Shown: in pieces, positions 35,920 to 51,390 of the stretch
How the letters are laid out: the number at the start of each line of letters is the position of its first letter
Numbering within the stretch: the stretch's first letter is position 1
IMG/VR virus record: IMGVR_UViG_3300037258_000375
Span: 41,299 to 105,298 of that record
From: a virus
DNA: 64,000 nt
Reading direction: 5' to 3' (one strand)
Made by a program: the position numbers and the translations under genes
The notes under the pieces: generated by a model
Told to the model about the DNA's origin: nothing
The model's input: only the letters and a program-made list of their open reading frames with translations
Databases searched by the model: none

Positions 35920-36137
35920 GGAGAAAGTATATCCCGAAGCGCGCAATTTTTAAACGGAAGATTCCTCTCCCGCTTGTTGCGGCCAGCCGGACATAGATAG
36001 GACAGGGTGGTTTGCTAGATGGGTTACTTTTGGGTAGGATGGTGTTACGCAGACATTCGCAGGAACTGGCCAATTAGGAATCACTATATACAAAAGGCTG
36101 GCATCGCGCCAGCCCTTTGTGGGGATGCCTTGAAAAG

Positions 36138-36635
36138 TTAGGGCGTCGGTGTGGAGAACTCCACCGCGACCGACTGGGTAAGTTGGGTTGGCGGAGGCGG
36201 AGTAACGGCGCTGGTTGTGATCGTAAACGCCTGGGTCCACGTCGAGACAGCGCCATCGGTATCGGTCACGGTGCAAGACGCCGCTCCGCTTACCGCGCCG
36301 GACGACGCAGCCACGCCGGTACAAGTAGCCGTGACCCCATCGGAGTTCAAGGTGACAGTGGCGGATGGGTCGTTAAACGAATAGCTGACATTCGAGAGGG
36401 TGCCTCCCGAGTTGGTGACGCCATCGGCCTCAAGAGGGACGATGGACGCCTGCGAAGTCTGGCCTACGTTAAAGACCAGGGCATTGTTCGGCATGGGGGA
36501 TTCTCCTGTGAAGCGAATTGTGATGCTTTTAGTGAGGGTTCGGGAGCGAAGCTCGTTCTTGATCTCGCGAAGATCGTGCGCGATCTCTTTGAGGAGACCA
36601 ACTATTTCGTGATCGTGGTCATGGAACAAACTCAT
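36138..36635 (-). CDS. Ig-like domain protein
   Basis: T/S/V-rich beta-sandwich-like sequence. Confidence 0.55.
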   Translation of the reverse strand: MSLFHDHDHEIVGLLKEIAHDLREIKNELRSRTLTKSITIRFTGESPMPNNALVFNVGQTSQASIVPLEADGVTNSGGTLSNVSYSFNDPSATVTLNSDGVTATCTGVAASSGAVSGAASCTVTDTDGAVSTWTQAFTITTSAVTPPPPTQLTQSVAVEFSTPTP

Positions 36636-36968
36636 GGCACCATCCTACACCGGATTGCAATGGGCCTGGATTGTAAATTTTTGACTAGAACCGGGGGCGT
36701 TGATTGAGGGGCGGGACACATGGCGAGGGAACGATCCGGAGACCCGGATTCAGCGAATGCTTTAGGATGAGCGTCCGGAATCCGGACTTGATCCAGTCGG
36801 CTCGGCGCGCCTCGGCTGTCCGCCGCAGCATGAATCCCTGATCCACCCAGTGAGCGCCGCTCTTCTCTTCGACAAGTAGACGCACCAGGGCGATCCGGCT
36901 GAATGGAGACTTCTTGACGATGTCAGCGATGGATGCGCGGTAGATGAGCATGGGAAGCATCATGTTTA

Positions 36969-37044
36969 TGGAGCGGGCGGCGGGACTCGAACCCGCGATC
37001 AACTGCTTGGAAGGCAGAGGTCTTAGCCGCTAGACGACACCCGC
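36969..37044 (-). tRNA. tRNA-Gly(UCC)
   Basis: cloverleaf; loop CUUCCAA; encoded CCA. Confidence 0.92.
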
Positions 37045-37565
37045 TAAAGTTTCAACCTTTCGATCTCCTGCTCTACGAACCCGCGCGTGATGGGATGGAG
37101 GATTATCCGGTCACGTCGTTCTTTGTACCAACCGCTCACATCCCACACGCCGCGAATGGCCCGTCCCGCTCCCGCCCAGTCGGCGATCATCTCGCGAACG
37201 TATTTGACCGGCATCGGCAGCGCTGCCGTATTGTCATCTGTGTTCGACGCTGGATCGTCAAGCAGAACCCAGTATTGCCAGTGATGCTTGTTCCAGTGAA
37301 TGTGATGGAGCCACGCTGTCTGGAACTCCGACGCAACACTTTCTTTCGTCCGACCGCAGTAGCCAGAGCATTGAATCTTCGCCGCGTCCCACTCTGGATA
37401 ATCACCGTAAAAGTAGCGCAGATAGGGGAACCATTCGCACGGCAGCAACTTGCTCCAATCGTGAATCACCAGCCGCCACAGCGAAGCTTTGGTTCTGAGC
37501 CCAGCTTGAAAGACAAACAGCTTGTGGCGGAACAGGTACCGAACGTACTGCAAGTTCTTCGTCAT
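37044..37565 (-). CDS. DUF5662-like HD-fold protein
   Basis: RHK..V, HDWSK, AWLHH...NKHHWQYW, MP..Y..EMIADW. Confidence 0.8.
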   Translation of the reverse strand: MTKNLQYVRYLFRHKLFVFQAGLRTKASLWRLVIHDWSKLLPCEWFPYLRYFYGDYPEWDAAKIQCSGYCGRTKESVASEFQTAWLHHIHWNKHHWQYWVLLDDPASNTDDNTAALPMPVKYVREMIADWAGAGRAIRGVWDVSGWYKERRDRIILHPITRGFVEQEIERLKL

Positions 37566-37891
37566 GCGAAAATTTTAGCGCCAAATTCCTTAGTTACCGG
37601 CGAAATTTTAGTAACGTTTCTGGAAAACTCGATGTTGCCCTTGCATCCGCTTGCGTTCTTTATTGCGCCATTTCTCGGTCGGCATCTTGTTAAGCCTCAG
37701 CGAGAGGTGTTCCGGATTGAACTTACTTCTGCGGATTTTGCGCAAGTTGAATTCGTGACGAGTGCAGAACGTGAGGCGATTCCCTTTTCCGTCATGTCCA
37801 AGAAGCGAGCAGTCTGGATAAAAACACCCACAATCGCTTGCTTGTTGATTTTCGAAATACGGTCCTTTTTTCATGTCCGCAATTATAGACT

Positions 37892-37968
37892 TGGTGGCGA
37901 TGGGAAGCATCGAACTTCCGACCTCACCCTTATCAGGGGTGCGCTCTGTCCAACTGAGCTACATCGCC
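37892..37968 (-). tRNA. tRNA-Ile(GAU)
   Basis: cloverleaf; loop CUGAUAA; CCA. Confidence 0.93.
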
Positions 37969-37972
37969 AAAA

Positions 37973-38048
37973 TGGGGCCGGGAACCGGGATCGAACCGGT
38001 GACCTCTCCCTTACCAAGGGAGTGCTCTGCCAACTGAGCTATCTCGGC
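37973..38048 (-). tRNA. tRNA-Thr(GGU)
   Basis: loop UUGGUAA; CCA. Confidence 0.92.
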
Positions 38049-38108
38049 AAACGTCAGTGAACTTTCGAAACGTCATACAAACGTCAGTGAAAAGTCATTG
38101 ACAGAAGT

Positions 38109-38184
38109 TGGTGCGGAGTGAGGGACTCGAACCCCCGGCGACCTGCTTGTAGGGCAGACGATCTAGCCGCTGATCTAACTCCGC
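38109..38184 (-). tRNA. tRNA-Val(UAC), C33 variant
   Basis: loop CCUACAA; CCA. Confidence 0.82.
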
Positions 38185-38189
38185 AAAAC

Positions 38190-38266
38190 TGGTGCGCGTG
38201 GACGGAATCGAACCGCCGACCTCAAGTTTCGGAAACTTGCGCTCTCTCCAACTGAGCTACACGCGC
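38190..38266 (-). tRNA. tRNA-Arg(CCG)
   Basis: loop UUCCGAA; CCA. Confidence 0.92.
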
Positions 38267-38478
38267 ATTTGACTTCCAACCCATTAAACATGGAAAACAT
38301 GTTCTCTTCCATGCCACTTCGCTGCGATTAAAACATGGCTCGACGTCTCCACATATCTTGCACCGCACGTTAATCAGGAGATTGGATGCATCAGCATTCG
38401 CAAGGTCCACTTCTTCATCCGTCAGTGGATCGCTCAATGACGACGCTCGAATCACAATCTCCTCCGACAAACCCGGTG

Positions 38479-38580
38479 CCGACCCGAAGATCGGGAAGGA
38501 GTCGAACCTTCCACCTCGTCCACGATTCTCCGCGTCGGAGATTCCCGCCGAGGACCCGACCCTCGGATGTGCGACGTGGT
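38479..38580 (-). ncRNA. unknown structured RNA with T-loop and UUCG hairpins
   Basis: GGAAGG-UUCGACU-CCUUCC, GAUC-UUCG-GGUC, CCACG/CGUGG, CCGAGG/CCUCGG. Confidence 0.5.
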
Positions 38581-38586
38581 GCAAAC

Positions 38587-38663
38587 TGGTGACCCCGGCG
38601 TGAGTCGAACACGCGACCTGTCGTTTAGGAAACGACCGCTCTATCCGTCTGAGCTACGGGGTC
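38587..38663 (-). tRNA. tRNA-Arg(CCU)
   Basis: loop UUCCUAA; CCA. Confidence 0.92.
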
Positions 38664-38922
38664 GTGACTTACTGGACACTTATCATTCGGCGCAGGCATC
38701 CAACAAGTACACTGTGGGTCGATGAATGTCTCCAGCACCCGATCACACTCTGCGTAGTCGCTGCCCACTGCCTGGAACATGCATTTCTGAAGTGCTTCGA
38801 AAGCTCTCACTCTGGACGCAACGCGTGTCTTAATAAACACCGTTTTTCCGTCGCGTTCGTGCGTGCCGCGTTCCAATGCTTCTTCTGCCCAGGTTCTCAT
38901 GGCGACCATCATACATCTAAAC

Positions 38923-38999
38923 TGGTGCTGGCGACTGGAGTCGAACCAGTGGCCTCAAGCTTAGAAGGCAAGTGCTCTATCCGTCTGAGCTACGCCAGC
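38923..38999 (-). tRNA. tRNA-Arg(UCU)
   Basis: loop CUUCUAA; imperfect anticodon stem; CCA. Confidence 0.85.
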
Positions 39000-39004
39000 A
39001 AAAT

Positions 39005-39079
39005 TGGTGGGACCGGTCAGAGTCGAACTGACATTTCAACGCTTAAAAGGCGTGGCCTCTACCATTGAGTTACGATCCC
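39005..39079 (-). tRNA. tRNA-Lys(UUU)
   Basis: loop CUUUUAA; CCA. Confidence 0.9.
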
Positions 39080-39480
39080 AATTTCCTTTTCCTTTTCCAC
39101 TCGTTGACGTATCCGTTGTGCGCCTTCTTACATAAATCACATCGGCAATACCGATAGGAAGAAATCGTGCCGTGCGTACCTTTTGCCTTGGTGAAGCCCA
39201 GGTCCACGATACTCTTATCCTGGTGGCACGGCCTGCAAAGCAATTGGCATTTCGCAACTTCCTCCCAAAAACGCCGGTCGCTATACGACCATATCCTGGC
39301 GATATCGGCGATCTTGGATGTTCGGGCTTTATGATCGAACTCAAGTTGTTTTTTACTGCCGCACCTGACGCACTTGCCGCCGAGTTTTCGAATTGCCGCC
39401 TTGCGCCTGCGGTGATATCTTTCCTTGATATACACGCGCATGTACGCATTGTATTCGGCTTTGTTTTTCCCGACTGGCAT
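39070..39480 (-). CDS. HNH endonuclease inside tRNA cluster, leaderless
   Basis: LGGKCVRCG...LEFDH...KCQLLC..CH; TATGCT six nt before ATG. Confidence 0.85.
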   Translation of the reverse strand: MPVGKNKAEYNAYMRVYIKERYHRRRKAAIRKLGGKCVRCGSKKQLEFDHKARTSKIADIARIWSYSDRRFWEEVAKCQLLCRPCHQDKSIVDLGFTKAKGTHGTISSYRYCRCDLCKKAHNGYVNEWKRKRKLGS

Positions 39481-39505
39481 GGATTAAGCATACCATGCTT
39501 CAACT

Positions 39506-39581
39506 TGGTGGGCGCGGAGGGCATCGAACCCCCGACCTTATGGTTAAGAGCCATCTGCTCTCCCAACTGAGCTACGCGCCC
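39506..39581 (-). tRNA. tRNA-Lys(CUU)
   Basis: loop CUCUUAA; CCA. Confidence 0.93.
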
Positions 39582-39585
39582 AAAC

Positions 39586-39777
39586 TTACCGGATCGGACG
39601 TACCAACGGACCGCCCGTCAACAAACCGAATGCACTTAGAAGCCACAGCACCACTGCGACGAGAACCACGATGTTCAAGATAGTCTTGATCTTCGGGTCC
39701 ATCGGAATGAACTGGTTTATCAACCACAAAAGCAAACCAACGACCACCAAGGTGACGATCAATCCAATCAATGTCAT
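39586..39777 (-). CDS. small two-TM membrane protein (Thivi_2564-like)
   Basis: LIVTLVVVGLLLWLIN.IPM...IK.ILN.VV; AGGAGG RBS. Confidence 0.8.
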   Translation of the reverse strand: MTLIGLIVTLVVVGLLLWLINQFIPMDPKIKTILNIVVLVAVVLWLLSAFGLLTGGPLVRPIR

Positions 39778-39808
39778 GAAGTTCCTCCTGCTGATTGGAT
39801 GCAACCTT

Positions 39809-39886
39809 TGGTGGGGCTGGTGACGACTCGAACCCACAACCGGAGAATTATGAGTTCTCTGCTCTGCCGACAAATCTTACAGCCCA
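39809..39886 (-). tRNA. tRNA-Ile2/Met(CAU), degenerate D/T arms
   Basis: loop CUCAUAA; CCA; mismatched T stem. Confidence 0.65.
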
Positions 39887-39888
39887 TT

Positions 39889-39965
39889 TGGTAGACGTGC
39901 GGAGCATCGAACTCCGAACCTTGCTCTTATAAGGAGCATGCTCTAGCCGATTGAGCTACACGTCT
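39889..39965 (-). tRNA. tRNA-Ile(UAU)
   Basis: UGCUC-CUUAUAA-GAGCA; canonical arms; CCA. Confidence 0.9.
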
Positions 39966-39976
39966 ATAAAACTTGT

Positions 39977-40136
39977 TTCACAGCGGGATGGCGTTGCGCC
40001 ATCGGAGTAGACAAACTCCGCTGTGAACTTTTTCGTAGTGGCCCACTGCAACGGCTAACCTTTCGGTGAGTTCTGCACGTCTCGGTAGTCTTAGCTTTCC
40101 GATACCGCCAGTGAATTATGCGCCGCCGCTACGAAA
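39977..40136 (-). ncRNA. two unknown structured RNAs (39977-40027 and 40031-40136)
   Basis: closing stems UUCACAGC/GCUGUGAA and UUUCGUAGCGGC/GCCACUACGAAA; internal hairpins. Confidence 0.55.
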
Positions 40137-40138
40137 CT

Positions 40139-40207
40139 TGGTGGCACGCCCGGAGTCGAACCGGATTACGTCCTTATGAGAGACGCTTCCCGCCTTGGGT
40201 ACGTGCC
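40139..40207 (-). tRNA. short tRNA-Met(CAU)
   Basis: loop CUCAUAA; T arm; CCA; reduced D arm. Confidence 0.65.
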
Positions 40208-40212
40208 AAATC

Positions 40213-40286
40213 TGGCAGGGGATGAACGATTTGAACGCTCAAATTCCGGGTTGGAGCCGGACGGTTTGCATTAAGCCTAATCCCCC
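40213..40286 (-). tRNA. tRNA-Trp(CCA)
   Basis: UCCGG-CUCCAAC-CCGGA; CCA. Confidence 0.85.
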
Positions 40287-40622
40287 AAAAGTTATCTTTC
40301 GATGACAATTAGCGCAGATGAGATCGCATTTTTGAATCTCGGCATAGATACGCGTCTTAGAGATACCCATCACCGCAATTGCATACGACACATCAAAGCA
40401 TTTTTCCTCGTCGGGTCGGTGATGGAATTCGAGGCACGCCCAAAATGACTCCTCACAATACAAGCAGTGCTTATCCTTTTTTAAGGACCGTGACCATTCA
40501 ACCCGCTTTGCCTTTTGAGCTATGGCGCGATCAATATAAGGCTGCTTATTGTTCCGGTAATGTTTCCTCCGGTAGCCTCGCAGTTTTTCTTGATTCGCGT
40601 CACGCCACGCTTTCGTAGACAT
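40239..40622 (-). CDS. HNH endonuclease inside tRNA cluster, leaderless
   Basis: C..C....CLEFHH...EI.KC.LICANCHR; TATACT six nt before ATG. Confidence 0.85.
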   Translation of the reverse strand: MSTKAWRDANQEKLRGYRRKHYRNNKQPYIDRAIAQKAKRVEWSRSLKKDKHCLYCEESFWACLEFHHRPDEEKCFDVSYAIAVMGISKTRIYAEIQKCDLICANCHRKITFGGLGLMQTVRLQPGI

Positions 40623-40638
40623 ACAAAAAGTATAGCGC

Positions 40639-40677
40639 TTTGGAGACCGGCAGTGTAGCCGCTGCGCTTACTCCCCT
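40639..40677 (-). pseudogene. 5' half of a tRNA-Trp truncated at the anticodon loop
   Basis: AGGGGAG-UA..GCCGGU-CUCCAAA then HNH promoter. Confidence 0.65.
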
Positions 40678-40695
40678 ATGATGTCAAAGACCAAC

Positions 40696-40720
40696 AAAAA
40701 ACCCTCTCCTGAGAGAGGGT
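40696..40720 (-). terminator. intrinsic terminator of attenuator 1
   Basis: ACCCUCUC-UCAG-GAGAGGGU followed by UUUUUG. Confidence 0.85.
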
Positions 40721-40743
40721 CCGGATTCCAATCTGTCTACAGA

Positions 40744-40830
40744 TTAGGAACCACAACCCTCACGCACGATTCCCCAAATGACCCGCTTGGTCCCGGTCAT
40801 GGTTCTCGCCGATTTGGTTATGGTCAGCAC
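40744..40830 (-). CDS. leaderless attenuator leader peptide MLTITKSARTMTGTKRVIWGIVREGCGS
   Basis: GTG 7 nt after -10; codons match downstream tRNAs; overlaps antiterminator. Confidence 0.8.
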   Translation of the reverse strand: MLTITKSARTMTGTKRVIWGIVREGCGS

Positions 40831-40837
40831 GAAAATA

Positions 40838-40866
40838 AGCGTACACCTGTTCGCATTTCGATGCAA
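40838..40866 (-). promoter_or_regulatory. sigma70-type promoter of tRNA operon 1
   Basis: TTGCAT-17 bp-TACGCT. Confidence 0.75.
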
Positions 40867-41009
40867 GCGGAAAATGGAAATATTCTTGTCAAGCGGAAAA
40901 TCGACACAGGCTTATCAGTGACTTGCAGACGAAGAAATGCGAAAACCCCTGTATTTATGCATGTTTGCAAATGCTCGCAATTAAAATTGACGTATCGGAG
41001 GAAACAACT

Positions 41010-41361
41010 ATGGATGGACAGATCAGCAAGTACGACCGGGTACGCGGCGGTCTTCATAACGTCGCGATGTTTACCAGGGCGAGCACAGTCAAAGACCGTG
41101 CAAGCCATCACCGGCAAGTCAGAAACGTTCGTCGTCGAGACAGCGCGGTTCGAAGACGAGGGAGATACCATCTTCATTGAGGCGCTCGATGAGAATGGCC
41201 TCACACGGCTCGCACTTCCACCAAAGGTTGCTGCGCTCATTGCTTCCCAGCGTGACAGTTTGACGGCGCGCCGCCGCTCGAAGGCCGCACAGCGAATTGC
41301 CCAGGAGCGCAAGGACCGAGGTGAGCTACCAGGGTTCATGCGCAAGAAGAGTACTGAATAA
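41010..41361 (+). pseudogene. hypothetical gene with apparent +1 frameshift at 41091-41093
   Basis: GGAGG RBS plus MDGQISKY..ASTV continues as KTVQAITG.. in next frame. Confidence 0.55.
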
Positions 41362-41403
41362 AAGTACCGTTGCCTCCCCCCAAAAGCGCGGTATCATGGG
41401 CGC

Positions 41404-41940
41404 ATGACAAACATTGAAGAAAAGGCGATGGTGTTTGCCACGCGAGCCCACAGAGGGCAGTTGAGAAAGTATACGAACGATCCGTACATTGTGCATCCAC
41501 TGACGGTCGCGGAGATCGTACGCGCCGTTCCCAACCACACAGAAGAGATGATCGCCGCCGCGTGGCTGCACGATGTCAAGGAAGATTGCGGCGTTCAACT
41601 GCCGGAGATCGCGGTAGAGTTCGGCTGGCCGGTCGCCACCATGGTTGATGAACTCAGCGACGTCTCGACCCACTTCGATGGCAACAGGAAGGCACGGAAG
41701 GCCATCGATCTACGACACACAGCGAAGGCGTCTCCGCAGAGCAAGACGATCAAGCTGGCCGACCTCATCGACAACACATCGAGCATCGTGCAATTCGACC
41801 CGAAGTTTGCGAAGGTCTACCTGCCGGAGAAGCTGGCCCTTCTCGAAGTGCTCAAGGATGGCGATTCCGAACTCTGGAAACGAGCCTACAGGTTGGCGCG
41901 GAGAAACGTCTCCCACACCGCGATGTTCTCCAGCCGATAA
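41404..41940 (+). CDS. HD-domain (p)ppGpp hydrolase-like (SpoT/Mesh1 type), leaderless
   Basis: FA..AH.GQ.RK....PYI.HP..VA, AA.LHDV.ED, IKLAD..DN. Confidence 0.88.
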   Translation: MTNIEEKAMVFATRAHRGQLRKYTNDPYIVHPLTVAEIVRAVPNHTEEMIAAAWLHDVKEDCGVQLPEIAVEFGWPVATMVDELSDVSTHFDGNRKARKAIDLRHTAKASPQSKTIKLADLIDNTSSIVQFDPKFAKVYLPEKLALLEVLKDGDSELWKRAYRLARRNVSHTAMFSSR

Positions 41941-42140
41941 CGCCGCCTCTGCCTGGAGCCTGGGACGAACCCCACGGCGCGCACGTCCAGGCCGTAAGCT
42001 CGGCATCGAGTGACCGAGTCGGCTCCCTGGAAGTCACCGAGAATCTCTGCGATCTGCGTGGACACCACCGCATCGTTGCTTCTGAAAAGCTCGATGAGCA
42101 CAGGAAGAGAACTCTCCACGGACTGCTTCATGCTTCCCTC

Positions 42141-42172
42141 AAAAAAAGGGCTGCGGGGATTGGCCCCGCAGC
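42141..42172 (-). terminator. terminator of Y-RNA/Ro60 operon
   Basis: GCUGCGGGG-CCAAU-CCCCGCAGC followed by CCUUUUUUU. Confidence 0.8.
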
Positions 42173-42197
42173 GAAGTTGATCGGTGTTGTTGTAATA

Positions 42198-42488
42198 CTA
42201 GATCGACTCGCCAAGGTCTGCCAACTCCTTGTCGATCTGCGCGCGCTTCTCCTGAGCAGTCTTAAGGCTCTCGCGCTCTGACTTCAACTGACGAATACGC
42301 GTCGCACGACGGTCTTCCATACGTGAAGAAATCTCACGGGAAATGGTATTCAGGTTATCGGAAACGTACTCCGGAACCGTGACCTTCTGTGCCTCGAACT
42401 CGCTACGAAGCTGCTTACCGAATGCTGACAGTGCGACAAGCTCATCGATGTCAGACTCTACATTGAAGTTCTTGAAATCCTGAAGCAT
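42198..42488 (-). CDS. small coiled-coil protein downstream of Ro60
   Basis: AGGAGG RBS before MLQDFK. Confidence 0.7.
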   Translation of the reverse strand: MLQDFKNFNVESDIDELVALSAFGKQLRSEFEAQKVTVPEYVSDNLNTISREISSRMEDRRATRIRQLKSERESLKTAQEKRAQIDKELADLGESI

Positions 42489-42601
42489 GGTCTTCCTCCT
42501 TTCCGCGATCCTCTGCTTCGAGAGATCGACAAAGATATTCTTCTTCGGAACCCTATTGCGGCTCGGGTTCTCATGCTTCTTGTTGTGGTAGTTCACTGCC
42601 A

Positions 42602-44110
42602 TCACACACCTACCAGTTCCGTATCCTTCAGCACATCGCTGAGCGACTTCAACGGCGTCGCCATGATCTCGTCAACGAGGCTGTACTGGTTCGACCGCAT
42701 CGTCTGCACAAGGTTCGGGATCGCATAATAGTCCGTCTTGCCGTCGCGAAGATCGAACGTCTGCATCTCGATACCCAGTGCATTCATGCGGTAGCTCAAG
42801 TTATCTGTACCGCCAGCGCAGTGGTAGAAGTAGACCGGCACGTCCTTATCCACGAACGTCGCATACTTCTTATACACATCCGGGAAGTGAGGTGCCCTAT
42901 TCTCCTCGCCGTCCGACACGATGGCAATGCCGTCAACCGCGATCTTCTCCGCCAGCATCCGATTCAGACCGCAACCGATGGACGTCGCCGAGCCAGTCTT
43001 GATGTGCTTCGTCGCGGCGATGACCTGATCCAGCGAGCAACCGGTGACATCTACAGTCATCGGAGTTTCGTCGAAGAACACGAGATACACCTTGCCCTTC
43101 ACGAACTGCGCCAGAGACGCCGCCACATGCTTACCGAACTCGATGCTCTTCTCCATGCTCGGGCTGCGATCCACCAGCACAAGCCAATCGCCAGCCGGAC
43201 CGCCAGCCTTCGCGATCTGCTTCGCCTGCAAGCCGCGCAGCTTCTCCTTCAGGCCCTCATCCGTGACGCCCTCGACTGCCTGGGTCGTCTTGAGCGTGTT
43301 CTGCGTAGACGTTGCCGCCTTCTGAAGTGCCTGCTCAAGCGCACCACGCAAAGCTGGGTTGGTCTTGACGCCGAGCTTCTCCAACATCTTCATGCTGGTC
43401 GCTAACTCGGTTGCCGTCATTTGGCCGATGAGGGCCAACACAAGGTCCGGCTCCTTCGCCTTCGCACCAAGAGCACCCGCAGCGATCAAGAACGGCACCT
43501 TGAACCTGATGATTGCGCCCGCCGCCTCAACCGGAGACATGTCCTTGAGGTGTGCCACTGCTTCGAAGACAGAGCCCTTCGGCAAAGCCAGCTTGGTCAC
43601 AACCACGGTACCGTCGATCTTCTCCTTCCACTGGCCGGAGATGACCGCAGCGACGCGGCGGTTACCAGGACCGGTACGTGAGAGCGCGTACAGCGCCTTG
43701 AGCACGCTGCGGTGCTGGATCGCGATGTGATCCCAGTTCCGTGACTCTTCCTTCTGCCGGAGATAGGCGCGAATCACGCGATCCATCTGCGACATCTTGC
43801 CCTTCGGACGAATCTCACGCACGAAATCGAAGGCGCGGCGCAACTCACGCGGGCCGAGCGCAGCCATGTGCGCGACGCTGTTGTCGAGTAATTCGAGATC
43901 ACTCTCGAACGCGAGGCCGAGAACCGGCAACGCGACCTTGCTGTCACGAATCTGACCATGCCGCGCGTTCCAGGCGATCAAATGCTGGAAGAACTCGCCA
44001 TCCTGCGCAATGGCCTGCTTGCCAACCTCGACATACTCGCCGAGCTTGCCGTGAGGAGACTTACTCAACTCGCTAAAAACCTTGGAGCGCGTTAAACCCT
44101 GCTTCTCCAT
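42602..44110 (-). CDS. Ro60/TROVE-vWA RNA-binding protein (divergent)
   Basis: helical N-domain (R..GQIRD) plus vWA with LVDRSPSM, T, IVSDGEEN; adjacent Y-like RNAs. Confidence 0.8.
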   Translation of the reverse strand: MEKQGLTRSKVFSELSKSPHGKLGEYVEVGKQAIAQDGEFFQHLIAWNARHGQIRDSKVALPVLGLAFESDLELLDNSVAHMAALGPRELRRAFDFVREIRPKGKMSQMDRVIRAYLRQKEESRNWDHIAIQHRSVLKALYALSRTGPGNRRVAAVISGQWKEKIDGTVVVTKLALPKGSVFEAVAHLKDMSPVEAAGAIIRFKVPFLIAAGALGAKAKEPDLVLALIGQMTATELATSMKMLEKLGVKTNPALRGALEQALQKAATSTQNTLKTTQAVEGVTDEGLKEKLRGLQAKQIAKAGGPAGDWLVLVDRSPSMEKSIEFGKHVAASLAQFVKGKVYLVFFDETPMTVDVTGCSLDQVIAATKHIKTGSATSIGCGLNRMLAEKIAVDGIAIVSDGEENRAPHFPDVYKKYATFVDKDVPVYFYHCAGGTDNLSYRMNALGIEMQTFDLRDGKTDYYAIPNLVQTMRSNQYSLVDEIMATPLKSLSDVLKDTELVGV

Positions 44111-44139
44111 AGTGTCACCGTCTCTTTCAGTTGTGGTAG

Positions 44140-44691
44140 TTATGGGAGTGTACGAGTTCTGAGATATTCGAGAAGGTCGATATAGCTGATCTTCTTCAAC
44201 TGGCACCACGCCACCGCCGACATACCACCTTTGTCTTTGTTGCATTTTCGGCACGCAGACAGGTAGTTACTCGGATCATTCAAGCCGCCCATCTCCAACG
44301 GATTGAAGTGGTCAATGGTCAATTGAACCTTGCCCATCGGCAGACTACAGTACACACATTTACAGCCGTCAGCCATCCATACTTTCTGCTGGACGGCACC
44401 GGAAATGTCGTAGCGTAGCTTCCGATGGAAAATCTTCTCCATCGAGCCTTGGACAAGAATCTCAGGATCGTCCGATCTCTGGAGCCAGTCCGACCATTCT
44501 TCGGTGGTAAGAATTCGAACTGACGCTACAGTAGAAAGACCACGCGCGTTCGGCAATAAGAACACGGCTTGCGCGCCTTCGCCGCCGATCACGACACCTT
44601 CAATTTTGAGGATGGAGCCTACGTCGCCGTGGAGAGCGGGACGATGGCGCAATTCTAGCTGATAAAATCTTGAGTCACTCGCCATCGTCAT
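44140..44691 (-). CDS. HNH nuclease with extra N-terminal domain
   Basis: DG.KCVYC, LTIDHF.P...GG....NY.SAC.KCN..K. Confidence 0.85.
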   Translation of the reverse strand: MTMASDSRFYQLELRHRPALHGDVGSILKIEGVVIGGEGAQAVFLLPNARGLSTVASVRILTTEEWSDWLQRSDDPEILVQGSMEKIFHRKLRYDISGAVQQKVWMADGCKCVYCSLPMGKVQLTIDHFNPLEMGGLNDPSNYLSACRKCNKDKGGMSAVAWCQLKKISYIDLLEYLRTRTLP

Positions 44692-44709
44692 CCCCCCGGA
44701 TCGAACTTA

Positions 44710-44843
44710 CGTGCTGTAGTCGATATGGCTTAGATTTTGCAGAGCCTTTCGGCCCGCGCCCCCCGTATATGAAGCCGGTATGGTGGTGGAAGGGGCCGGG
44801 GTTTCCCCCGGAACAAGATCATGTACCCATGTCAGTCAGCACG
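44710..44843 (-). ncRNA. Y-RNA-like unit 1
   Basis: GUGCU-GACUG-ACAUGGG-UACAUG...CCAUAU-CGACUAC-AGCAC. Confidence 0.8.
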
Positions 44844-44850
44844 AACTTAA

Positions 44851-44965
44851 TGCAGCGGCCAAGGAGGCAATTCGTAGCGGTAAAACCTGCTGTTGAGCTT
44901 CAGAGAGTCACTCGGCTCCGCTACACCCTTCTATTCCAGCCTCGGTAGGTCACCCCGCCGCTGCA
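44851..44965 (-). ncRNA. unknown rod-like structured RNA in Y array
   Basis: nested stems UGCAGCGGC/GCCGCUGCA, GAGGC/GCCUC, GUAGCGG/CCGCUAC. Confidence 0.6.
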
Positions 44966-44977
44966 AAACAAACTTGA

Positions 44978-45055
44978 TCGCGGTACCTTCTATGGCTCTC
45001 GAAGAGTACCTGTTTGGGATCGCATCCTTCTAAAGCCTTCCCTCGGGCACCGCGA
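44978..45055 (-). ncRNA. unknown four-way-junction RNA in Y array
   Basis: UCGCGGU/ACCGCGA closing three hairpins. Confidence 0.55.
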
Positions 45056-45058
45056 ACT

Positions 45059-45172
45059 TGGCTGGGGAACTCGGTTACGAGCCGAGAGCCTTCTTGCGAA
45101 GGCGCAAAGACATGTATCCAAGTCAGTCGGCAGTAACGCCGTAGTCGATCTGGAACTTCTTCAGTTCCCCAG
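45059..45172 (-). ncRNA. Y-RNA-like unit 2 (permuted; acceptor stem, T arm, CCA end)
   Basis: CGACUAC-GGC-loop-GCC-GACUG..UACAUG inside CUGGGGAA/UUCCCCAG-CCA. Confidence 0.8.
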
Positions 45173-45180
45173 TAAAACTT

Positions 45181-45241
45181 GCTGGCGGGAGTTGCCTCGG
45201 CACCTTCCACTCCCGGATCGCCTCGCGGCTGTCGAGCCAGC
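45181..45241 (-). ncRNA. unknown small three-way-junction RNA in Y array
   Basis: GCUGGC/GCCAGC, CGGGAGU/ACUCCCG, GCC-GCGA-GGC. Confidence 0.55.
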
Positions 45242-45249
45242 TAAATTAT

Positions 45250-45368
45250 TGGGGGCGGGTCTTGGATTCGAACCAAGATGCTCAGTTGATGAGACTTCGC
45301 TTTGCCATGTACCCGAATCTGTCAGCGTTTCCGCTGTAGTCGCTCCGGATTGTTTCATAACCCGCCCC
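45250..45368 (-). ncRNA. Y-RNA-like unit 3 (permuted; tRNA with D arm replaced by Y stem)
   Basis: GGCGGGU/ACCCGCC-C-CCA; CUUGG-UUCGAAU-CCAAG; CGACUAC..GACAG..UACAUG. Confidence 0.82.
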
Positions 45369-45375
45369 AACTTAC

Positions 45376-45498
45376 TGACCTGTAGTCGAAGTGCTATTCC
45401 CTTTCGGGAACGGAGTTGGAATTGAACCAACAACCTTCTGCTTAAGAGGCAGATGCTCTACCAAGTGAGCTATCCATGTAAGCACTTCAGTCAGGCCA
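45376..45498 (-). ncRNA. Y-RNA-like unit 4 carrying a tRNA-Lys(CUU) body
   Basis: Y stem enclosing D arm, UCUGC-CUCUUAA-GCAGA, T arm, GAAA hairpin. Confidence 0.85.
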
Positions 45499-45511
45499 TT
45501 CTCAAACTTAC

Positions 45512-45648
45512 TGGGCTGTAGTCGATCTGCTTGTGTTGCTAAGCGCTCTACCACTGAGCTAATCCCGCATAAAATTATGGGGCGGGATGAAGGATTCGAA
45601 CCTCCGACCTCTGCCTTGGAAGGGCATGTAAGCAAATCAGTCAGCCCA
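45512..45648 (-). ncRNA. Y-RNA-like unit 5, YrlA-type (T-acceptor-D order) from tRNA-Gly halves
   Basis: Y stem enclosing CUUCCAA arm, T arm, AUCCCGC-CCCA-spacer-GCGGGAU, D arm. Confidence 0.85.
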
Positions 45649-45655
45649 TACTTAC

Positions 45656-45731
45656 TGGCTTGTAGTCGTTCCGCATTGCCTTTCGGCGTGTTCGTGTTCA
45701 AAGCGATCATGTATGCGAAACAGTCAAGCCA
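45656..45731 (-). ncRNA. Y-RNA-like unit 6 (minimal)
   Basis: UGGCUU-GACUG-UUUCGCA-UACAUG...UGCGGAA-CGACUAC-AAGCCA. Confidence 0.8.
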
Positions 45732-45744
45732 TACTCAAAATTTC

Positions 45745-45861
45745 TCCGCTGTAGTCGTCTGGCAACCCCTTGCGGGGACACGGTCGGATTTGAACCGACT
45801 GCTTTTCATCCAAATTGAAATGTGGGACCAACCCACACATGTAAGCCAAACAGTCAGCGGA
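45745..45861 (-). ncRNA. Y-RNA-like unit 7 with degenerate tRNA body
   Basis: Y stem enclosing D-like arm, AUUUGGA loop arm, GUCGG-UUCAAAU-CCGAC, GCAA hairpin. Confidence 0.82.
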
Positions 45862-45881
45862 AACTCAAACTCAACTTCACA

Positions 45882-45910
45882 ACCTTACCACAACCCTGTC
45901 ATGCGCGCAA
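45882..45910 (-). promoter_or_regulatory. promoter of Y-RNA/HNH/Ro60 operon
   Basis: TTGCGC-17 bp-(TGG)TAAGGT with upstream A-tract; same TTGCGCGCAT as promoter at 48911. Confidence 0.65.
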
Positions 45911-46564
45911 TTTCTTTTTCTGCGCCGATCTATGGAGGGGCCGGAGGGAGTCGAACCCACGACCTGTTGATTCGTAGTCAACCGCTCTATCCGTCTGAGC
46001 TACGGCCCCGTGGTCGGGACTGTGGGATTCGAACCCACGACCACCTGTTCCCAAAACAGGAGCGCTACCTGACCGCGCCCAGTCCCGATACTCTAAGTCT
46101 TGGTCGGGGAGAGGGGATTCGAACCCCTGCATAGCCGAGCTACCTGCCCTTTGGTACGCGCCCAAGGATTCGAACCTCGGACCTCCGTCAGACTGCAACG
46201 GCGCTCTGACCACTGAGCTAGGCGCGTATGAAACATTCTTCTCACTCCACAGTTTATAGTTCTGCAAGACCGCGCGCTGTTCCTCATCGAGGGGCACGGT
46301 CACGACCGCTGTGAGACCAAGGTCATTGTCCGGCTCATAGAAAGCGGACGCATCGATGTGATGCAGCTTGAGCTTGGCAATGACTCTTTCGAGAGCTTTT
46401 TTGTTGGGGACGCCGATCAACACGAGGGACGGAACAAGATCATCCACACTCTGTGAAAGTGTGTAGGCCATCTCAAATGTCGCATGATTGGTCTGAATGA
46501 TCTGCTGCGCCAAGGTCAGGTCTTGGCGGACGAACAAGAAGTAGTATGGATTCCCCTAATGCAT
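45899..46564 (-). CDS. peptidyl-tRNA hydrolase 2-like protein with in-frame UAG at codon 3; ORF runs through downstream tRNAs
   Basis: YFLFVRQDL...QQIIQ..HA, LVL..V, F.EPD...GLTAV...P, L..Y.LW. Confidence 0.75.
45933..46009 (-). tRNA. tRNA-Arg(ACG)
   Basis: loop CUACGAA; CCA. Confidence 0.92.
46011..46087 (-). tRNA. tRNA-Pro(UGG)
   Basis: loop UUUGGGA; CCA. Confidence 0.92.
46101..46149 (-). pseudogene. internally deleted tRNA remnant (T arm plus CCA)
   Basis: AGGGG-UUCGAAU-CCCCU, CUCCCCG-A-CCA; no anticodon arm. Confidence 0.6.
46152..46227 (-). tRNA. tRNA-like RNA with non-canonical anticodon loop
   Basis: intact acceptor/D/T arms and CCA; loop GCAGUCU lacks U33 and purine 37. Confidence 0.7.
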
Positions 46565-46570
46565 GTGAGT

Positions 46571-46599
46571 ATCTTTCACCTGTTCTAAAATTTTGTCAA
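46571..46599 (-). promoter_or_regulatory. promoter for leaderless pth-like mRNA
   Basis: TTGACA-17 bp-AAAGAT, six nt before ATG 46564. Confidence 0.7.
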
Positions 46600-46859
46600 G
46601 GGGAATTTTCTAAACACGCCCTCATGAATCACATCTAGCTGGTAGCAAGTGATACCTATTTGTCTCGCTTTCACTTTCATGATGAGGGTTCGGCTGTTGG
46701 AATCCCATTCTCCGACATCGATGCCGATGACGTACTTACTTGGAGGCGGGAGCGTGACCATGCCCGCACTCACCGGTTCCAATGCCGCGACAGCAGCCAA
46801 GGGCGCGAGAGCTTTCGCGCCAGCAAGACCAGCTATCGATCTGAGAAAGCCGCGCCGAT

Positions 46860-47099
46860 TCACGACGACATCCCAATTCCTACTCTCACATCGGGCAGTT
46901 TGCGCAAATTCTCAGCAGCATTCACGGCCTGCGCAGCGTCCTCGTAGCGGAAGACAAGATCACGGGTATAAGTGCCCGAGAGCATACAGCCGGAGTCACA
47001 CTTCACTGGGCCATCAGGCACGTAACCGGCAGCTACGAAGATCGCTTCATCGGTCGCACTCTTGATGCCGCCGTCGTACTCGACAATTACGTTGTGCAT
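46860..47099 (-). CDS. small hypothetical protein
   Basis: GGGAG RBS. Confidence 0.55.
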   Translation of the reverse strand: MHNVIVEYDGGIKSATDEAIFVAAGYVPDGPVKCDSGCMLSGTYTRDLVFRYEDAAQAVNAAENLRKLPDVRVGIGMSS

Positions 47100-47117
47100 G
47101 AAGACTCCCGGAGAGAT

Positions 47118-47192
47118 TGGTAGAGCGTGCGGGACTCGAACCCGCGTCTTAGCCTTGAAAGAGCCATGTCCTAGCCGCTAGACGAACACTCC
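47118..47192 (-). tRNA. tRNA-Glu(UUC)
   Basis: loop CUUUCAA; CCA. Confidence 0.87.
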
Positions 47193-47398
47193 ACAACTTA
47201 CTCTTCTTTGTTTAAGGCATCAAGCGCCTTCGACGGAGCCTGCTTGATCCTCAAACGGAATCTGCACCATGCCTCGAATGCGCTACCGGCCATCAGCATA
47301 ATAAACTCGGCACCGATGCAGATGAACATCAAATCAATGAGGCCGTTAAAGAGCCATTTCTGGAAATAAGATACGTCCATGCTTCACCCCCGTGAACT

Positions 47399-47473
47399 TG
47401 GTAGGGAGTACGGGAATCGAACCCGTGTGGCAAGATTGAGAATCTTGCATCCTAGCCGCTAGATGAACTCCCC
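47399..47473 (-). tRNA. tRNA-Glu(CUC)
   Basis: loop UUCUCAA; CCA. Confidence 0.9.
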
Positions 47474-47689
47474 AAAAATCAGGCAGAACCAGTATATCCC
47501 GAACCTGCACTTGTAATCACAACGGAAGCAATCCGGCCATTCGCATTGAGGGTTACCTCGGTCCCAACCCGGCGAGCCTCCCAGGCACGAGCCGATCTCA
47601 GAAAGATATTCCGGATCAGAGCCGCTTTCCGCCGCCTCTGAATCCGCGCCAAGACCTTCTTGCGCTTGTGCTTCTTTTTGCGATTCTCG

Positions 47690-48050
47690 GGCATAAAAAT
47701 CGAGGCCGGGTATTGCTTTGCATGGAACCCGGCGAACCACGGATAGCTGTTTTTAGGCAGCCATCGGCAACGCATTATCCTCAGCGTTTATTGGTCTGCA
47801 TCCCTTTTGCGGGCGGTAGCAGGGTTCCCGGCACGAAGCTGGAGTTCATTGATCTCGTCGAAACCTTGACGCCCCCACCAAGAAACACTGATTGAGAAAT
47901 GTCTAGCCTGTCCACGAAGCTTTTTGACCAGCTTCGCCCTCGTAGCGCCGGAATCGAACCGACGACGCAATTAGTGCTTCTTGGTGGAGGCGGCGGGAGT
48001 CGAACCCGCGTCCGAAATCAACTTCCTTCAGTGTTGACGTGCGTAACTCA
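47690..48050 (-). ncRNA. ssrA: circularly permuted (two-piece) tmRNA, tag (A)AEDNALPMAA*
   Basis: acceptor piece ending GGUUCGACUCCCGCCGCCUCCACCA (47982) precedes 5' piece GGGGGCG..UUCGAC (47876); G3-U pair; tag at 47785-47753; outer ends approximate. Confidence 0.88.
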
Positions 48051-48075
48051 AATACTGCTCTCCTTTTCTTGAAAA

Positions 48076-48618
48076 TCATTGGACTTGAATATACACCGTC
48101 TTGTCTTCTGACGGGACGATTAAAAAGCTCCGGTCTGGTAAATCCGGAATCCCATGGATCAATCGCTGTCGTAGGGATTCGTGATGTACCCCATAATTCT
48201 TAGCTACCGACCGCATGGACTCACCAGACCTGATCCGCTCTCTCGCGATAGCAAGCTGGTCTTCTGAAAATCTCCTGGTCACCTCGCGTCTTCTGCGCCC
48301 ACGCGCCGGGTCATACGAGGTAATCGCTTTATCTATCTGCGATTGGCGACGAATCGACATCAATGGCCTGAGCAACTGCATCATCTGCAATATCCTCAAG
48401 CCGCCAATGTTGACAACCCAGGAATCTTTCCACTGAGGCTTACGCTTTTTCTTTCGAACTTTGTGATACTTCGCGTTTAACAACCTTGCGATTCGCGCGA
48501 TCACATCTTCATCTGTCATATTGCATGATATGCGTGGGCAATTTGGCTTAGAAGGAGGGCTACATAGAAATGACCCCTCCCCTTCAAGAATGCCAGCAAG
48601 CCAATGAAGATCATGCAT
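48076..48618 (-). CDS. LAGLIDADG-family homing endonuclease
   Basis: WLAGILEGEGSF, MTDEDVI; C-terminal HTH. Confidence 0.85.
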   Translation of the reverse strand: MHDLHWLAGILEGEGSFLCSPPSKPNCPRISCNMTDEDVIARIARLLNAKYHKVRKKKRKPQWKDSWVVNIGGLRILQMMQLLRPLMSIRRQSQIDKAITSYDPARGRRRREVTRRFSEDQLAIARERIRSGESMRSVAKNYGVHHESLRQRLIHGIPDLPDRSFLIVPSEDKTVYIQVQ

Positions 48619-48626
48619 CAAAATTA

Positions 48627-48702
48627 TGGCGCGACCGACCGGGGTTGAACCGGCGACCTCTTGATCGACAATCAAGCGCTTTTCCATCTAAGCTACGGTC
48701 GC
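48627..48702 (-). tRNA. tRNA-Asp(GUC)
   Basis: loop UUGUCGA; CCA. Confidence 0.88.
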
Positions 48703-48706
48703 GTGT

Positions 48707-48794
48707 GCCCAAATAGGTTCAAGCTTTCGCCGCTCCAATATGCGTTCGCGGAAACGCCTAAGCGCTCCAGACCCTACTAGCATTACCCTTGGGC
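48707..48794 (-). ncRNA. unknown structured RNA between tRNAs
   Basis: GCCCAA/UUGGGC closing stem; fills the whole spacer. Confidence 0.4.
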
Positions 48795-48799
48795 TTAAT

Positions 48800-48876
48800 T
48801 GGTTGCGGGCGCACGCTCCGACCGTGCCGATGTGGTGGTTATGAGCCACCCGAGACGCCTTTTCTCCATGCCCGCG
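48800..48876 (-). tRNA. initiator-like tRNA-Met(CAU)
   Basis: C1:A72 mismatch; loop CUCAUAA; atypical T loop; CCA. Confidence 0.75.
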
Positions 48877-48882
48877 TTTCAT

Positions 48883-48911
48883 AATGTACCACGGAATGGG
48901 AATGCGCGCAA
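48883..48911 (-). promoter_or_regulatory. promoter of fMet-Asp-tmRNA-Glu operon
   Basis: TTGCGC-17 bp-(TGG)TACATT. Confidence 0.7.
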
Positions 48912-48912
48912 A

Positions 48913-49407
48913 TTACTCCAGCCCTGGACCCTGGGACAGATCGAGCGCTTCGCCTCCCGCGCGACGCTGAATGCCGTACTTGCTGAAATCGATGTGCCAC
49001 GATGGCCATCCCTTCTCAATGCGCTCCAATGCTCCAGCCCATGCAGCTTCCATCGTGTCGTAGAACGTTTGGCTCGCACTCACGACAAGATAGCTACCGC
49101 CTTGGACGTTTGGCGGGATTTCTTCGCCGAGGATGACAAATCCAAGTTGTCCGATTTGCTTTGCATGGGCTTGTGGAAAGTCATTTGCTACTCGGTTTGC
49201 AGCCGCGATGGACAGCTTTTGTTTGACAAAGTCTGGATCACAAACGTGAGGATGCCACTCAGTGTTGGGATAGATGGAACCTTGAGGATTGGTGAACGCG
49301 GTGCCGCCCCACTCAGTACCCATTTTGACGATTAGGATACCGCAGTTCGGGCAATCGTGGGGACCGTAGTAGACGATCCTAGAGTTACGAAAGGTGATGG
49401 GTGACAT
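48913..49407 (-). CDS. hypothetical protein
   Basis: AGGAG RBS; CPNCG..H.C. Confidence 0.6.
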   Translation of the reverse strand: MSPITFRNSRIVYYGPHDCPNCGILIVKMGTEWGGTAFTNPQGSIYPNTEWHPHVCDPDFVKQKLSIAAANRVANDFPQAHAKQIGQLGFVILGEEIPPNVQGGSYLVVSASQTFYDTMEAAWAGALERIEKGWPSWHIDFSKYGIQRRAGGEALDLSQGPGLE

Positions 49408-49608
49408 AGATTTTCTCCTGCGTAAGTAGTTCCGCTTTCACGGAATGACAGGAGTCTAGCACAAAAGGAAAGACCCCGCCGAAGCGAGGCCGTTCCTTTG
49501 CCCAATAGGTTGTAGCTACCTAACCGGATCAGTCGTTTGTGTCGTTGTCCATCCCCATTTTCTGCCGGGTTGACCGACCCTTCTGCGAATCATTCTATCA
49601 CGTATTTT

Positions 49609-50805: not shown

Positions 50806-50837
50806 AGGTCACCTCCGATGCCGGTGATTATAGCTTA

Positions 50838-50928
50838 TGGTGCGTCGGACAGGATTCGAACCTGCAATGTCATCAAAGATGATCCAGATTTACAGTCTGG
50901 TAGTGTCCACCGTCTCACCAGCCGACGC
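50838..50928 (-). tRNA. tRNA-Tyr(GUA)
   Basis: loop CUGUAAA; long variable arm; CCA. Confidence 0.9.
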
Positions 50929-51390
50929 ATCTCTTAATCTTGTTTTGTAATTCGCTTTATTCCTTGCTTTGCTTCTGCAAAACTTACATTCGGTCTGAAG
51001 GCCGCGTCGTTTATGTTTATTCTTCGTAAAATGTCCAACCGGAGCAAAATGTTCACCAAGACAGCACCATGCCATTCCCGGAGGATCAACTACTCGCAGG
51101 TGCGCCTGCGAGTCTAAGACTTTACGTTCTCGCAGTGTCTTTTCCAGATGACAACGATGGCACCGCACCCTACATTTTGCTAATTCAATTGTTCTTTTTC
51201 TTTCTCCCCAACTCCAGATCGCAGAACTGATTTTTGTTTTTGGATTGTTGTGATCTAGCTCAAGATTGTCCCATGATCTACAGTCAGTGCAAGGGCCATT
51301 TTCTACGAACCATTTCCGTCGTCTCTTCTTTACGACTTCTTCGTACCACCGCTTCTGCGCGGCGCGCTGTTTTTCAATATCTCTCGCCAT
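50890..51390 (-). CDS. HNH endonuclease inside tRNA cluster, leaderless
   Basis: C..C....LELDH..P..K..EL.KC...C..CH; TATAAT six nt before ATG. Confidence 0.85.
   Translation of the reverse strand: MARDIEKQRAAQKRWYEEVVKKRRRKWFVENGPCTDCRSWDNLELDHNNPKTKISSAIWSWGERKRTIELAKCRVRCHRCHLEKTLRERKVLDSQAHLRVVDPPGMAWCCLGEHFAPVGHFTKNKHKRRGLQTECKFCRSKARNKANYKTRLRDASAGETVDTTRL

Follow-up and report, generated by a model that had tools for sequence, protein, structure and literature searches.

A candidate leader-peptide attenuator ahead of a phage transfer RNA cluster belongs to a family present in phages and acidobacterial chromosomes

Leader-peptide attenuation is the textbook means by which bacteria couple amino-acid biosynthesis to the level of charged transfer RNA (tRNA). 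The DNA analysed here, a 64,000-nucleotide (nt) window that forms the right-hand 64 kb of a 105,298-bp virus record (IMG/VR IMGVR_UViG_3300037258_000375), carries at about 40.8 kb, on the minus strand, a short leader unit upstream of twelve tRNA genes (40286-36969, minus strand; ARAGORN). In order, the cluster encodes Trp, Met, Ile(UAU), Lys(CUU), Lys(UUU), Arg(UCU), Arg(CCU), Arg(CCG), Val(UAC), Thr(GGU), Ile(GAU) and Gly(UCC) tRNAs. We propose that the leader unit is probably a ribosome-mediated (leader-peptide) transcription attenuator, built in the manner of the trp and thr attenuators, that controls this tRNA operon. The parts of the unit, their conservation, the match of its codons to the cluster and its alternative pairings were established by computation and are laid out below.

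The unit begins with a sigma-70-like promoter (40866-40838), in which TTGCAT (40866-40861) and TACGCT (40843-40838) are separated by a 17-nt spacer; no other sigma-70-like promoter was found ahead of the cluster. An open reading frame (ORF) of 28 codons runs from GTG at 40830 to TAA at 40746-40744, and because only 7 nt lie between the -10 box and the start codon, the leader messenger RNA (mRNA) would be leaderless or nearly so. Codons 2-5 (region 1, 40825-40816) have 40758-40749 as their pairing partner when the whole leader is folded to minimum energy, and a hairpin within the ORF around an invariant AAGCGG loop (the inner hairpin, 40802-40774) is a candidate pause hairpin. The last five codons, immediately 5' of the stop, constitute region 2 (40761-40747), the 5' strand of a putative antiterminator. 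Its 3' strand is region 3 (40729-40715), of which 40722-40715 doubles as the 5' strand of an intrinsic terminator (40722-40696; 10-bp stem, UCAG loop, U6 tract, -15.6 kcal/mol), whose stem a terminator scan places at 40722-40699.

The 143-nt transcript is more stable than its shuffles (-56.7 kcal/mol, z -3.07). When the transcript is cut before the 3' strand of the terminator, its minimum-energy fold is the antiterminator hairpin (-26.9 kcal/mol), which pairs GAGGGUU..GGUUCC (40761-40747) with GGAAUC..GGACCCUC (40729-40715) and thereby occupies 7 of the 10 bases that make up the terminator's 5' strand. An earlier sequence-only reading of this DNA had proposed the promoter, leaderless GTG ORF, hairpin and terminator, and each was found on the minus strand at the positions it gave; the long hairpin that it saw overlapping the terminator corresponds to this fold of the truncated transcript. 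The likeness it noted to another leader, at 52.4 kb, also holds, in that ATTTTCGTG and GAGGGTTG each occur three times in the genome, with two of the occurrences at the two leaders.

Under standard wobble, the twelve cluster tRNAs read 16 codons, a set that makes up 26.1% of a background of 29,825 codons in 132 proxy genes. Seventeen of the 21 leader codons from 2 to 22 belong to this set (binomial P 2.4e-7), while the maximum for 21-codon windows of the proxy genes is 15. Across six frames of the 105-kb genome, which contain 119,243 open 21-codon windows, 16 or 17 in-set codons occur only in the leader ORF. Within codons 3-21, Ser (TCG) and Ala (GCG) are the sole residues foreign to the downstream cluster, precisely as the sequence-only reading had claimed, and its statement that chance is an unlikely source of the match is now backed by a computed probability and by this unique genome-wide maximum. 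The leader samples 11 of the 12 tRNAs (AGG is missing); coverage of 11 classes was reached by 1 in 400,000 simulated ORFs and by 2 of 27,185 real windows. Homologues of the leader, described below, cover 10-12 of the 12 tRNA classes, with all 12 covered in six copies.

Codon usage within the family suggests where selection acts. ACC and ACT account for 48 of 52 Thr codons (45% in the proteome) and AGA, AGG and CGG for 32 of 38 Arg codons (39% in the proteome), so that synonymous choice follows the cluster tRNAs. At alignment columns whose majority codon is in-set, 31 of 45 alternative codons are also in-set, as compared to 43.5% expected from single-base neighbours (p 5e-4). A Val-Ile to Met-Gly swap is chemically drastic, yet it remains in-set and rebuilds the same hairpin with other bases. 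These in-set changes and the tRNA coverage of the homologues argue that selection acts on the codon set and not on the peptide. The last six ORF codons of this phage, which form the antiterminator strand, are out of set, and ten short-ORF copies lack them.

Relatives were sought in metagenome and viral contigs using the neighbouring 550-amino-acid gene and a degenerate pattern of the ORF core as queries. Twelve further distinct phage or metagenome copies were recovered, giving 13 phage-type copies in all. A protein search with the 550-amino-acid neighbour returned one distant uncultured phage; a nucleotide search of the phage collection with 40200-41400 gave no match, and the HD-domain and HNH neighbours as queries gave no related viral loci. 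Every copy keeps the same order of sigma-70-like promoter, ORF (21-28 codons), hairpin, terminator, TTTGACA word and a cluster starting with tRNA-Trp. The ORF starts with ATG in 11 copies and GTG in two, at a fixed in-frame distance to the invariant AAGCGG. Frame 0 is open in 13/13 copies, frame +1 is closed in 13/13 and frame +2 is closed in 7/13; insertions and deletions (indels) measure 3 or 6 nt inside the ORF and are of any length in loops. Seven copies (L004, L012, L015, L018, L020, L022 and L025) have a -35 box of TTGCAA, TTGACA or TTGCAT, 17-18 nt, TAnnnT, and then 6-7 nt to the start, a layout that would give a leaderless mRNA. In three others (L011, L013 and L019) the 5' untranslated region (UTR) is longer and an AAGGA Shine-Dalgarno sequence stands 6-9 nt ahead of ATG. 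The start codon, frame, indels and Shine-Dalgarno sequences are good comparative evidence that the ORF is translated. Checked across related phages, conservation thus extends to the start, frame, promoter, terminator and antiterminator.

The geometry expected of a switch is likewise preserved. Region 2 begins between 17 nt before and 3 nt after the stop codon in 12 of the 13 copies, with the L026 fold reaching -26; in every copy the stop codon abuts or falls within region 2, and region 2 pairs with 5-9 bases of the terminator strand. The terminator stem differs in sequence in nearly every copy with its pairing retained, and the bases of the inner hairpin differ by subfamily (AAUGACC/GGUCAUU vs CCAUU/GAUGG). 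Because the structure came out only in part when RNAalifold was run on a plain MAFFT alignment, we named the helices and counted their pairs across 43 aligned, distinct short-ORF copies. Here the antiterminator helix was 93.6% paired, as against 33-50% with a slid partner, and none of 500 shuffles reached its covariation score, although this covariation is mostly G-U wobble and is to be read with caution. For the terminator, 95.7% of positions were paired, 29 cells had changed on both sides, and again 0/500 shuffles reached the score. Both helices use alignment columns 57-60, which are the base of the terminator stem beside the U tract. With the RNA masked as if by a ribosome at the stop codon, the probability of the terminator was 0.79-1.0 in 13/13 copies; with the mask of a ribosome stalled in the ORF instead, it fell in 8/13. 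The U tract lies 18-38 nt from tRNA-Trp, a gap too short to hold a separate sigma-70 promoter, and transcripts must therefore pass the terminator.

A second leader in the same genome reads a different set of codons. The 52.4-kb leader is the sole genome-wide maximum for Leu/Cys/Ser/Tyr (12/12, among 150,339 windows), and its homologues in three relatives keep their composition with the order of residues scrambled, which would be expected if the codons are sensed but not if the peptide has a function. Tables of leader against codon set in four genomes gave Fisher p values of 8.5e-4 to 2.4e-6.

The family extends to bacterial chromosomes. The core pattern matched 36 species-representative genomes, all of them metagenome-assembled genomes (MAGs) of Acidobacteriaceae, Terracidiphilus or Bryobacteraceae, with 27 distinct ORFs; several matches lie on contigs of 0.8-1.3 Mb, and loci L031-L066 come from peat bogs. 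In the bacterial copies, too, the start codon stays in frame and the ORF frame alone is open in those examined. At the 12 array loci examined, the unit sits within some 25-31 tRNA genes in the phage gene order, usually between tRNA-Arg(ACG) and tRNA-Trp, and has its own promoter (extended -10, or TTGCAA-17-TACTCT). In one Acidobacteriaceae MAG (G010), at least 25 tRNA genes are packed into 4.3 kb, and since the genome has 67 tRNA hits, far exceeding the content of the array, the array is supernumerary; it is an L-array, that is, at least 20 dense tRNA genes on top of a full dispersed set. Its neighbours are ordinary bacterial genes, with a P-type ATPase, a molybdopterin oxidoreductase and a LysR regulator to one side and ABC and efflux genes to the other. 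In the phage the same array occurs, split by inserted genes.

The G010 array (locus L069) contains three promoter-ORF-terminator units, at 12658-12729, 14264-14347 and 16259-16330. Tabulated by sub-array, the codons of the three leaders fall along the diagonal (11/6/3, 3/19/4, 2/5/11; chi-square p 2.4e-5), and each leader's last codons pair with the 5' strand of its terminator when the 3' strand is absent. The first leader has the ATTTTC-GTG-AAG-ACC-TTG start in common with the 52.4-kb phage leader and has gained Asp and Glu codons, the tRNAs for which belong to its sub-array. The number of ACC/ACT codons in the Trp-cluster leader is 2-5 where tRNA-Thr(GGU) is in the cluster and 0-4 (median 2) where it is not, a difference (p 8e-5) that is confounded by phylogeny. 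For bacterial leader B, this phage has no homologue at the DNA level. The notion that the tRNAs are grouped into separately sensed regulons, put forward in the sequence-only reading, gains support from the two leader-specific maxima in the phage and from the three sub-array-matched leaders in the bacterium.

From these features a mechanism can be proposed, in which translation of the ORF, coupling between ribosome and polymerase and the direction of the response are parts that we infer. A transcript started at the 40866-40838 promoter would open with the 28-codon ORF and so present about one codon for nearly every downstream tRNA. If these were decoded rapidly, the ribosome would reach the stop codon and cover region 2, leaving region 3 free, so that the terminator would form and the polymerase would halt before the tRNA genes. 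Scarcity of any sampled tRNA would stall the ribosome upstream; region 2 could then pair with region 3 and sequester the base of the terminator stem, and transcription would proceed through the HNH gene to the twelve tRNAs of the cluster. The outcome would be negative feedback on tRNA supply, operating as an OR gate over the tRNAs of the sub-operon.

Several observations weigh against this attenuator model. The terminator is still favoured at equilibrium in 5/13 copies despite the stalled ribosome, shuffled upstream sequence often pairs with the C-rich terminator strand too, and the antiterminator beats its shuffles in bases paired and energy (p <= 0.013) in only 6/13. Pairing between regions 1 and 2 wins only in the full-length equilibrium fold and is not preferred in most truncated transcripts. 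In truncated transcripts of most copies the antiterminator forms even without a ribosome, which implies that the untranslated default may be read-through and not termination. Leaderless GTG starts are poorly used in E. coli. The HNH genes of this phage may have promoters of their own that bypass the attenuator. As to the codons, GTC (Val), conserved twice, is not the standard partner of the cluster tRNA-Val(UAC); some relatives, such as L020, retain ATA, AGA, AGG and CGG codons without a matching cluster tRNA (ARAGORN); and bacterial copies match less well, with 11-14 of 21-23 codons in the set. The 3' half of the ORF (AAGCGG ... TGGGGA) is near-invariant in its bases from phages through bacteria, which points to a further constraint, because codon sampling alone needs no base-level invariance. 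Lastly, the model offers no explanation for a conserved word, TCTTTGACA, that follows the terminator.

Other readings of the unit account for some of these points. A translated leader with a terminator switch could sense the general speed of translation, responding to any slowdown, starvation or toxin, with the codon match as secondary tuning. The switch geometry would indeed respond to any stall, the bacterial copies are less codon-pure, and the trn operon of Anabaena is induced by general translational stress (PMC8421152). Such a sensor, however, needs neither three leaders matched to their sub-arrays, nor two unique maxima each before the matching cluster, nor in-set selection, and we regard it as unlikely. 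Somewhat less probable still is a functional small basic peptide, in which case the terminator would be constitutive and leaky and the tRNAs would arise from unregulated read-through. In favour of a peptide, conservation of the C-terminal half (KRVIWG and two hydrophobic residues) is strong across phages and bacteria, and some attenuator peptides act in trans, as does peTrpL (PMC7968998). However, chemically non-conservative substitutions stay in the codon set and preserve the RNA hairpin, synonymous Thr and Arg choice tracks the cluster tRNAs, homologues of the Leu-cluster leader retain composition and not sequence, and the stop codon always abuts the antiterminator strand.

That the ~135-nt transcript acts as an untranslated structured or small RNA, in trans or by binding a protein, we consider very improbable. 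Its folding stability (z -3.07), its own promoter and terminator and its base-level conservation would suit such a role, and terminated attenuator RNAs can serve as small RNAs, as rnTrpL does (PMC6614838). Yet all copies keep a single open frame and in-frame indels, a Shine-Dalgarno sequence appears exactly where the 5' UTR is long, and the codon match would be left unaccounted for. Nor does Rfam offer a match: no T-box or other cis-regulatory model fits the leader at E <= 1, and at the same threshold none of the amino-acid leader models (Thr, His, Leu, Trp, Phe) was found in the window at 36000-54000 or in the L013, L019, L020 and L069 leaders; near the leaders the only matches were to tRNAs and transfer-messenger RNA (tmRNA). 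A mere coincidence of a codon-rich ORF with a terminator might be suspected, as the sequence-only reading was directed at the stretches ahead of tRNA clusters, but an unbiased six-frame scan places the maximum exactly at the leader and the arrangement is conserved in about 40 distinct copies, so that coincidence is hardly credible.

As an attenuator, the phage leader shares its layout with thrL (Thr/Ile), ilvL of ilvGMEDA (Ile/Leu/Val), trpL, hisL and leuL: a promoter-proximal short ORF rich in regulatory codons. As in the thrL/ilvL class, the terminator and antiterminator overlap and the stop codon is placed where a terminating ribosome can block the antiterminator; the sensing of several amino acids by one leader is also a property of the multivalent thrL and ilvL leaders. 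It differs from them in regulating tRNA genes and not biosynthetic enzymes, so that the product is itself the sensed molecule, and in holding about one codon per tRNA, including isoacceptor-specific ATA, AGA/AGG, CGG, AAA and AAG, in place of runs of a single codon. Moreover, the mRNA of the phage leader family is often leaderless, and the family is without sequence or Rfam relation to these enterobacterial leaders. The pheM leader of E. coli pheST provides a case of leader-peptide attenuation of a component of the translation apparatus that responds to charged tRNA, as proposed here, although pheM controls a synthetase, senses one amino acid and belongs to an enterobacterial chromosome. T-box riboswitches also read tRNA status in a leader by means of a terminator/antiterminator switch; they, however, bind uncharged tRNA directly without a ribosome, possess a Stem I, specifier loop and T-box sequence, and regulate synthetase or amino-acid genes; the leader here measures only about 135 nt.

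Closer in gene content is the trn operon of Anabaena PCC 7120, an L-array that, like the bacterial arrays described above, adds 25-31 tRNA genes to a full dispersed set. Both kinds of array also occur in mobile elements or phages, have HNH genes among their tRNA genes and seem to stay off until translation runs into difficulty. Control of the Anabaena operon, the one supernumerary tRNA array with a studied mode of regulation, is exerted at the promoter by direct repeats and the repressor TrcR (PMC8421152, PMC10272220), whereas the leader control proposed here would act by attenuation. These two papers make no mention of 'leader peptide' or 'attenuat', and a survey of tRNA arrays (PMC4758250) makes none of 'attenuat', 'leader' or 'terminator'. 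In Sinorhizobium meliloti, rnTrpL/peTrpL is likewise an attenuator of the leader-peptide type, and further roles could fall to its terminated RNA and its peptide; it controls trpE(G), and the model for the phage leader needs no function in trans. A full-text literature search found no account of leader-peptide attenuation controlling tRNA genes. The conserved leader family, the partition of an array among three leaders and the occurrence of the family in bacterial chromosomes are new to this analysis.

On a broader and more tentative view, leader and sub-operon modules may constitute a back-up tRNA system that is mobile, regulates itself and is common to Acidobacteriaceae chromosomes and their phages. 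Each of three sub-arrays would be switched on when any of its own tRNAs became limiting, for instance through cleavage by a host anticodon nuclease in the course of infection, and the system might serve phages as a counter-defence that supplies replacement tRNAs when required and bacteria as insurance against translational stress. Should the attenuator model be right, tRNA supply would be under direct feedback that is read per codon and per isoacceptor, the fixed-order grouping of tRNA genes in phages and arrays would be explained with each group as one sensed regulon, and there would be a mechanism for supernumerary tRNA arrays that stay silent until needed. The leader would then be a compact natural sensor of individual tRNA pools. 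With about 40 distinct copies in the family and three differently tuned leaders in one array, these proposals lend themselves to testing with reporters.

The surroundings of the unit bear on its history. The window holds 30 tRNA genes and a permuted tmRNA, every one on the minus strand. While the twelve tRNAs named by the sequence-only reading were all found downstream, none of them is the first gene past the terminator. There, a 39-nt 5' remnant of tRNA-Trp (40677-40639, minus strand) ends at the close of the anticodon loop and matches the 5' half of tRNA-Trp from a relative at 92% identity. It is followed by a gene for an HNH endonuclease of 127 amino acids (40622-40239, minus strand; phrog_2255, E 1.5e-18), the first gene past the attenuator, whose 3' end overlaps a complete but divergent tRNA-Trp (40286-40213, minus strand). 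Since tRNA-Trp comes straight after the terminator in relatives without an HNH gene here, the HNH cassette was inserted later, within the operon's first gene, and the remnant marks the original start of the cluster. The combination of remnant, HNH gene and divergent tRNA-Trp is suggestive of homing in which a variant tRNA was co-converted. Small ORFs are interspersed among the cluster tRNAs, and at least one is a further HNH gene. The L069 locus (12400-17300, on the 813-kb contig) similarly has an HNH gene (15047-15571) and a 75-amino-acid ORF (13530-13757) between tRNA genes.

As the attenuators belong to an array family common to hosts and phages, the host of this phage is likely an acidobacterium of peat or soil. 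A search of sequencing runs for the phage sequence matched two DNA soil metagenomes, of which one is probably its source, and no RNA run. At another bacterial locus (L067, 16251-17700; genome G008, 986-kb contig), a gene for a trypsin-like peptidase, in place of tRNA genes, comes after the Trp-cluster leader and its terminator, an arrangement that represents either a truncated array or an attenuator captured by a protein gene.

In the phage window, a possible third unit lies at 49619-49472 (minus strand), with TTGAGA, 16 nt, TAGAAT with a TG, a 9-codon ORF and a terminator at 49491-49472. Its ORF consists of Met, Gly, Asp, Asn and Thr codons and precedes a 164-amino-acid ORF and tRNA-Met/Asp; these residues suit the Met-Asp-Glu-Asn-Gln-Gly-Thr block of the relatives. 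The third unit is not conserved in the relatives' loci that were compared.

The conserved word TCTTTGACA (40690-40682, minus strand) stands between the terminator and tRNA-Trp and recurs, as TTTGACA or TTTGAAA (TCTTTGACA or TCTTTGAAA), in all phage and bacterial homologues read (L004-L066); it may serve as a site for processing or binding. We rejected it as the -35 box of a second promoter: there is no -10 box at 16-18 nt, transcription would start inside tRNA-Trp, and a TAAT-like word in four relatives is only 9-12 nt away, unusable by sigma-70. In L011 (2590-3000), about 350 nt are inserted between the leader terminator and tRNA-Trp, and the insertion ends with a second terminator and a second copy of TCTTTGACA.

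Upstream of the leader promoter lies a small plus-strand island with a 56-amino-acid ORF at 41010, preceded by a strong Shine-Dalgarno sequence, and an HD-domain (HD_4) gene at 41404-41940; the promoter consequently sits in a divergent intergenic region. A 173-amino-acid minus-strand ORF across the promoter (40824-41345) has no family match, clashes with the plus-strand ORF at 41010 and was judged spurious. The island (41010-42013) fills the space between a terminator at 42172-42150 and the leader promoter, unlike in L004, L012, L015 and L019, where the upstream terminator directly abuts the leader promoter. Finally, the 12-nt word ATTTTCCGCTTG occurs in two direct copies (40901-40890 and 40875-40864, minus strand). 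This tandem duplication takes in the -35 box and produces two -35-like hexamers 26 nt apart; each copy ends in such a hexamer, and a correctly spaced -10 box is present only for the second.

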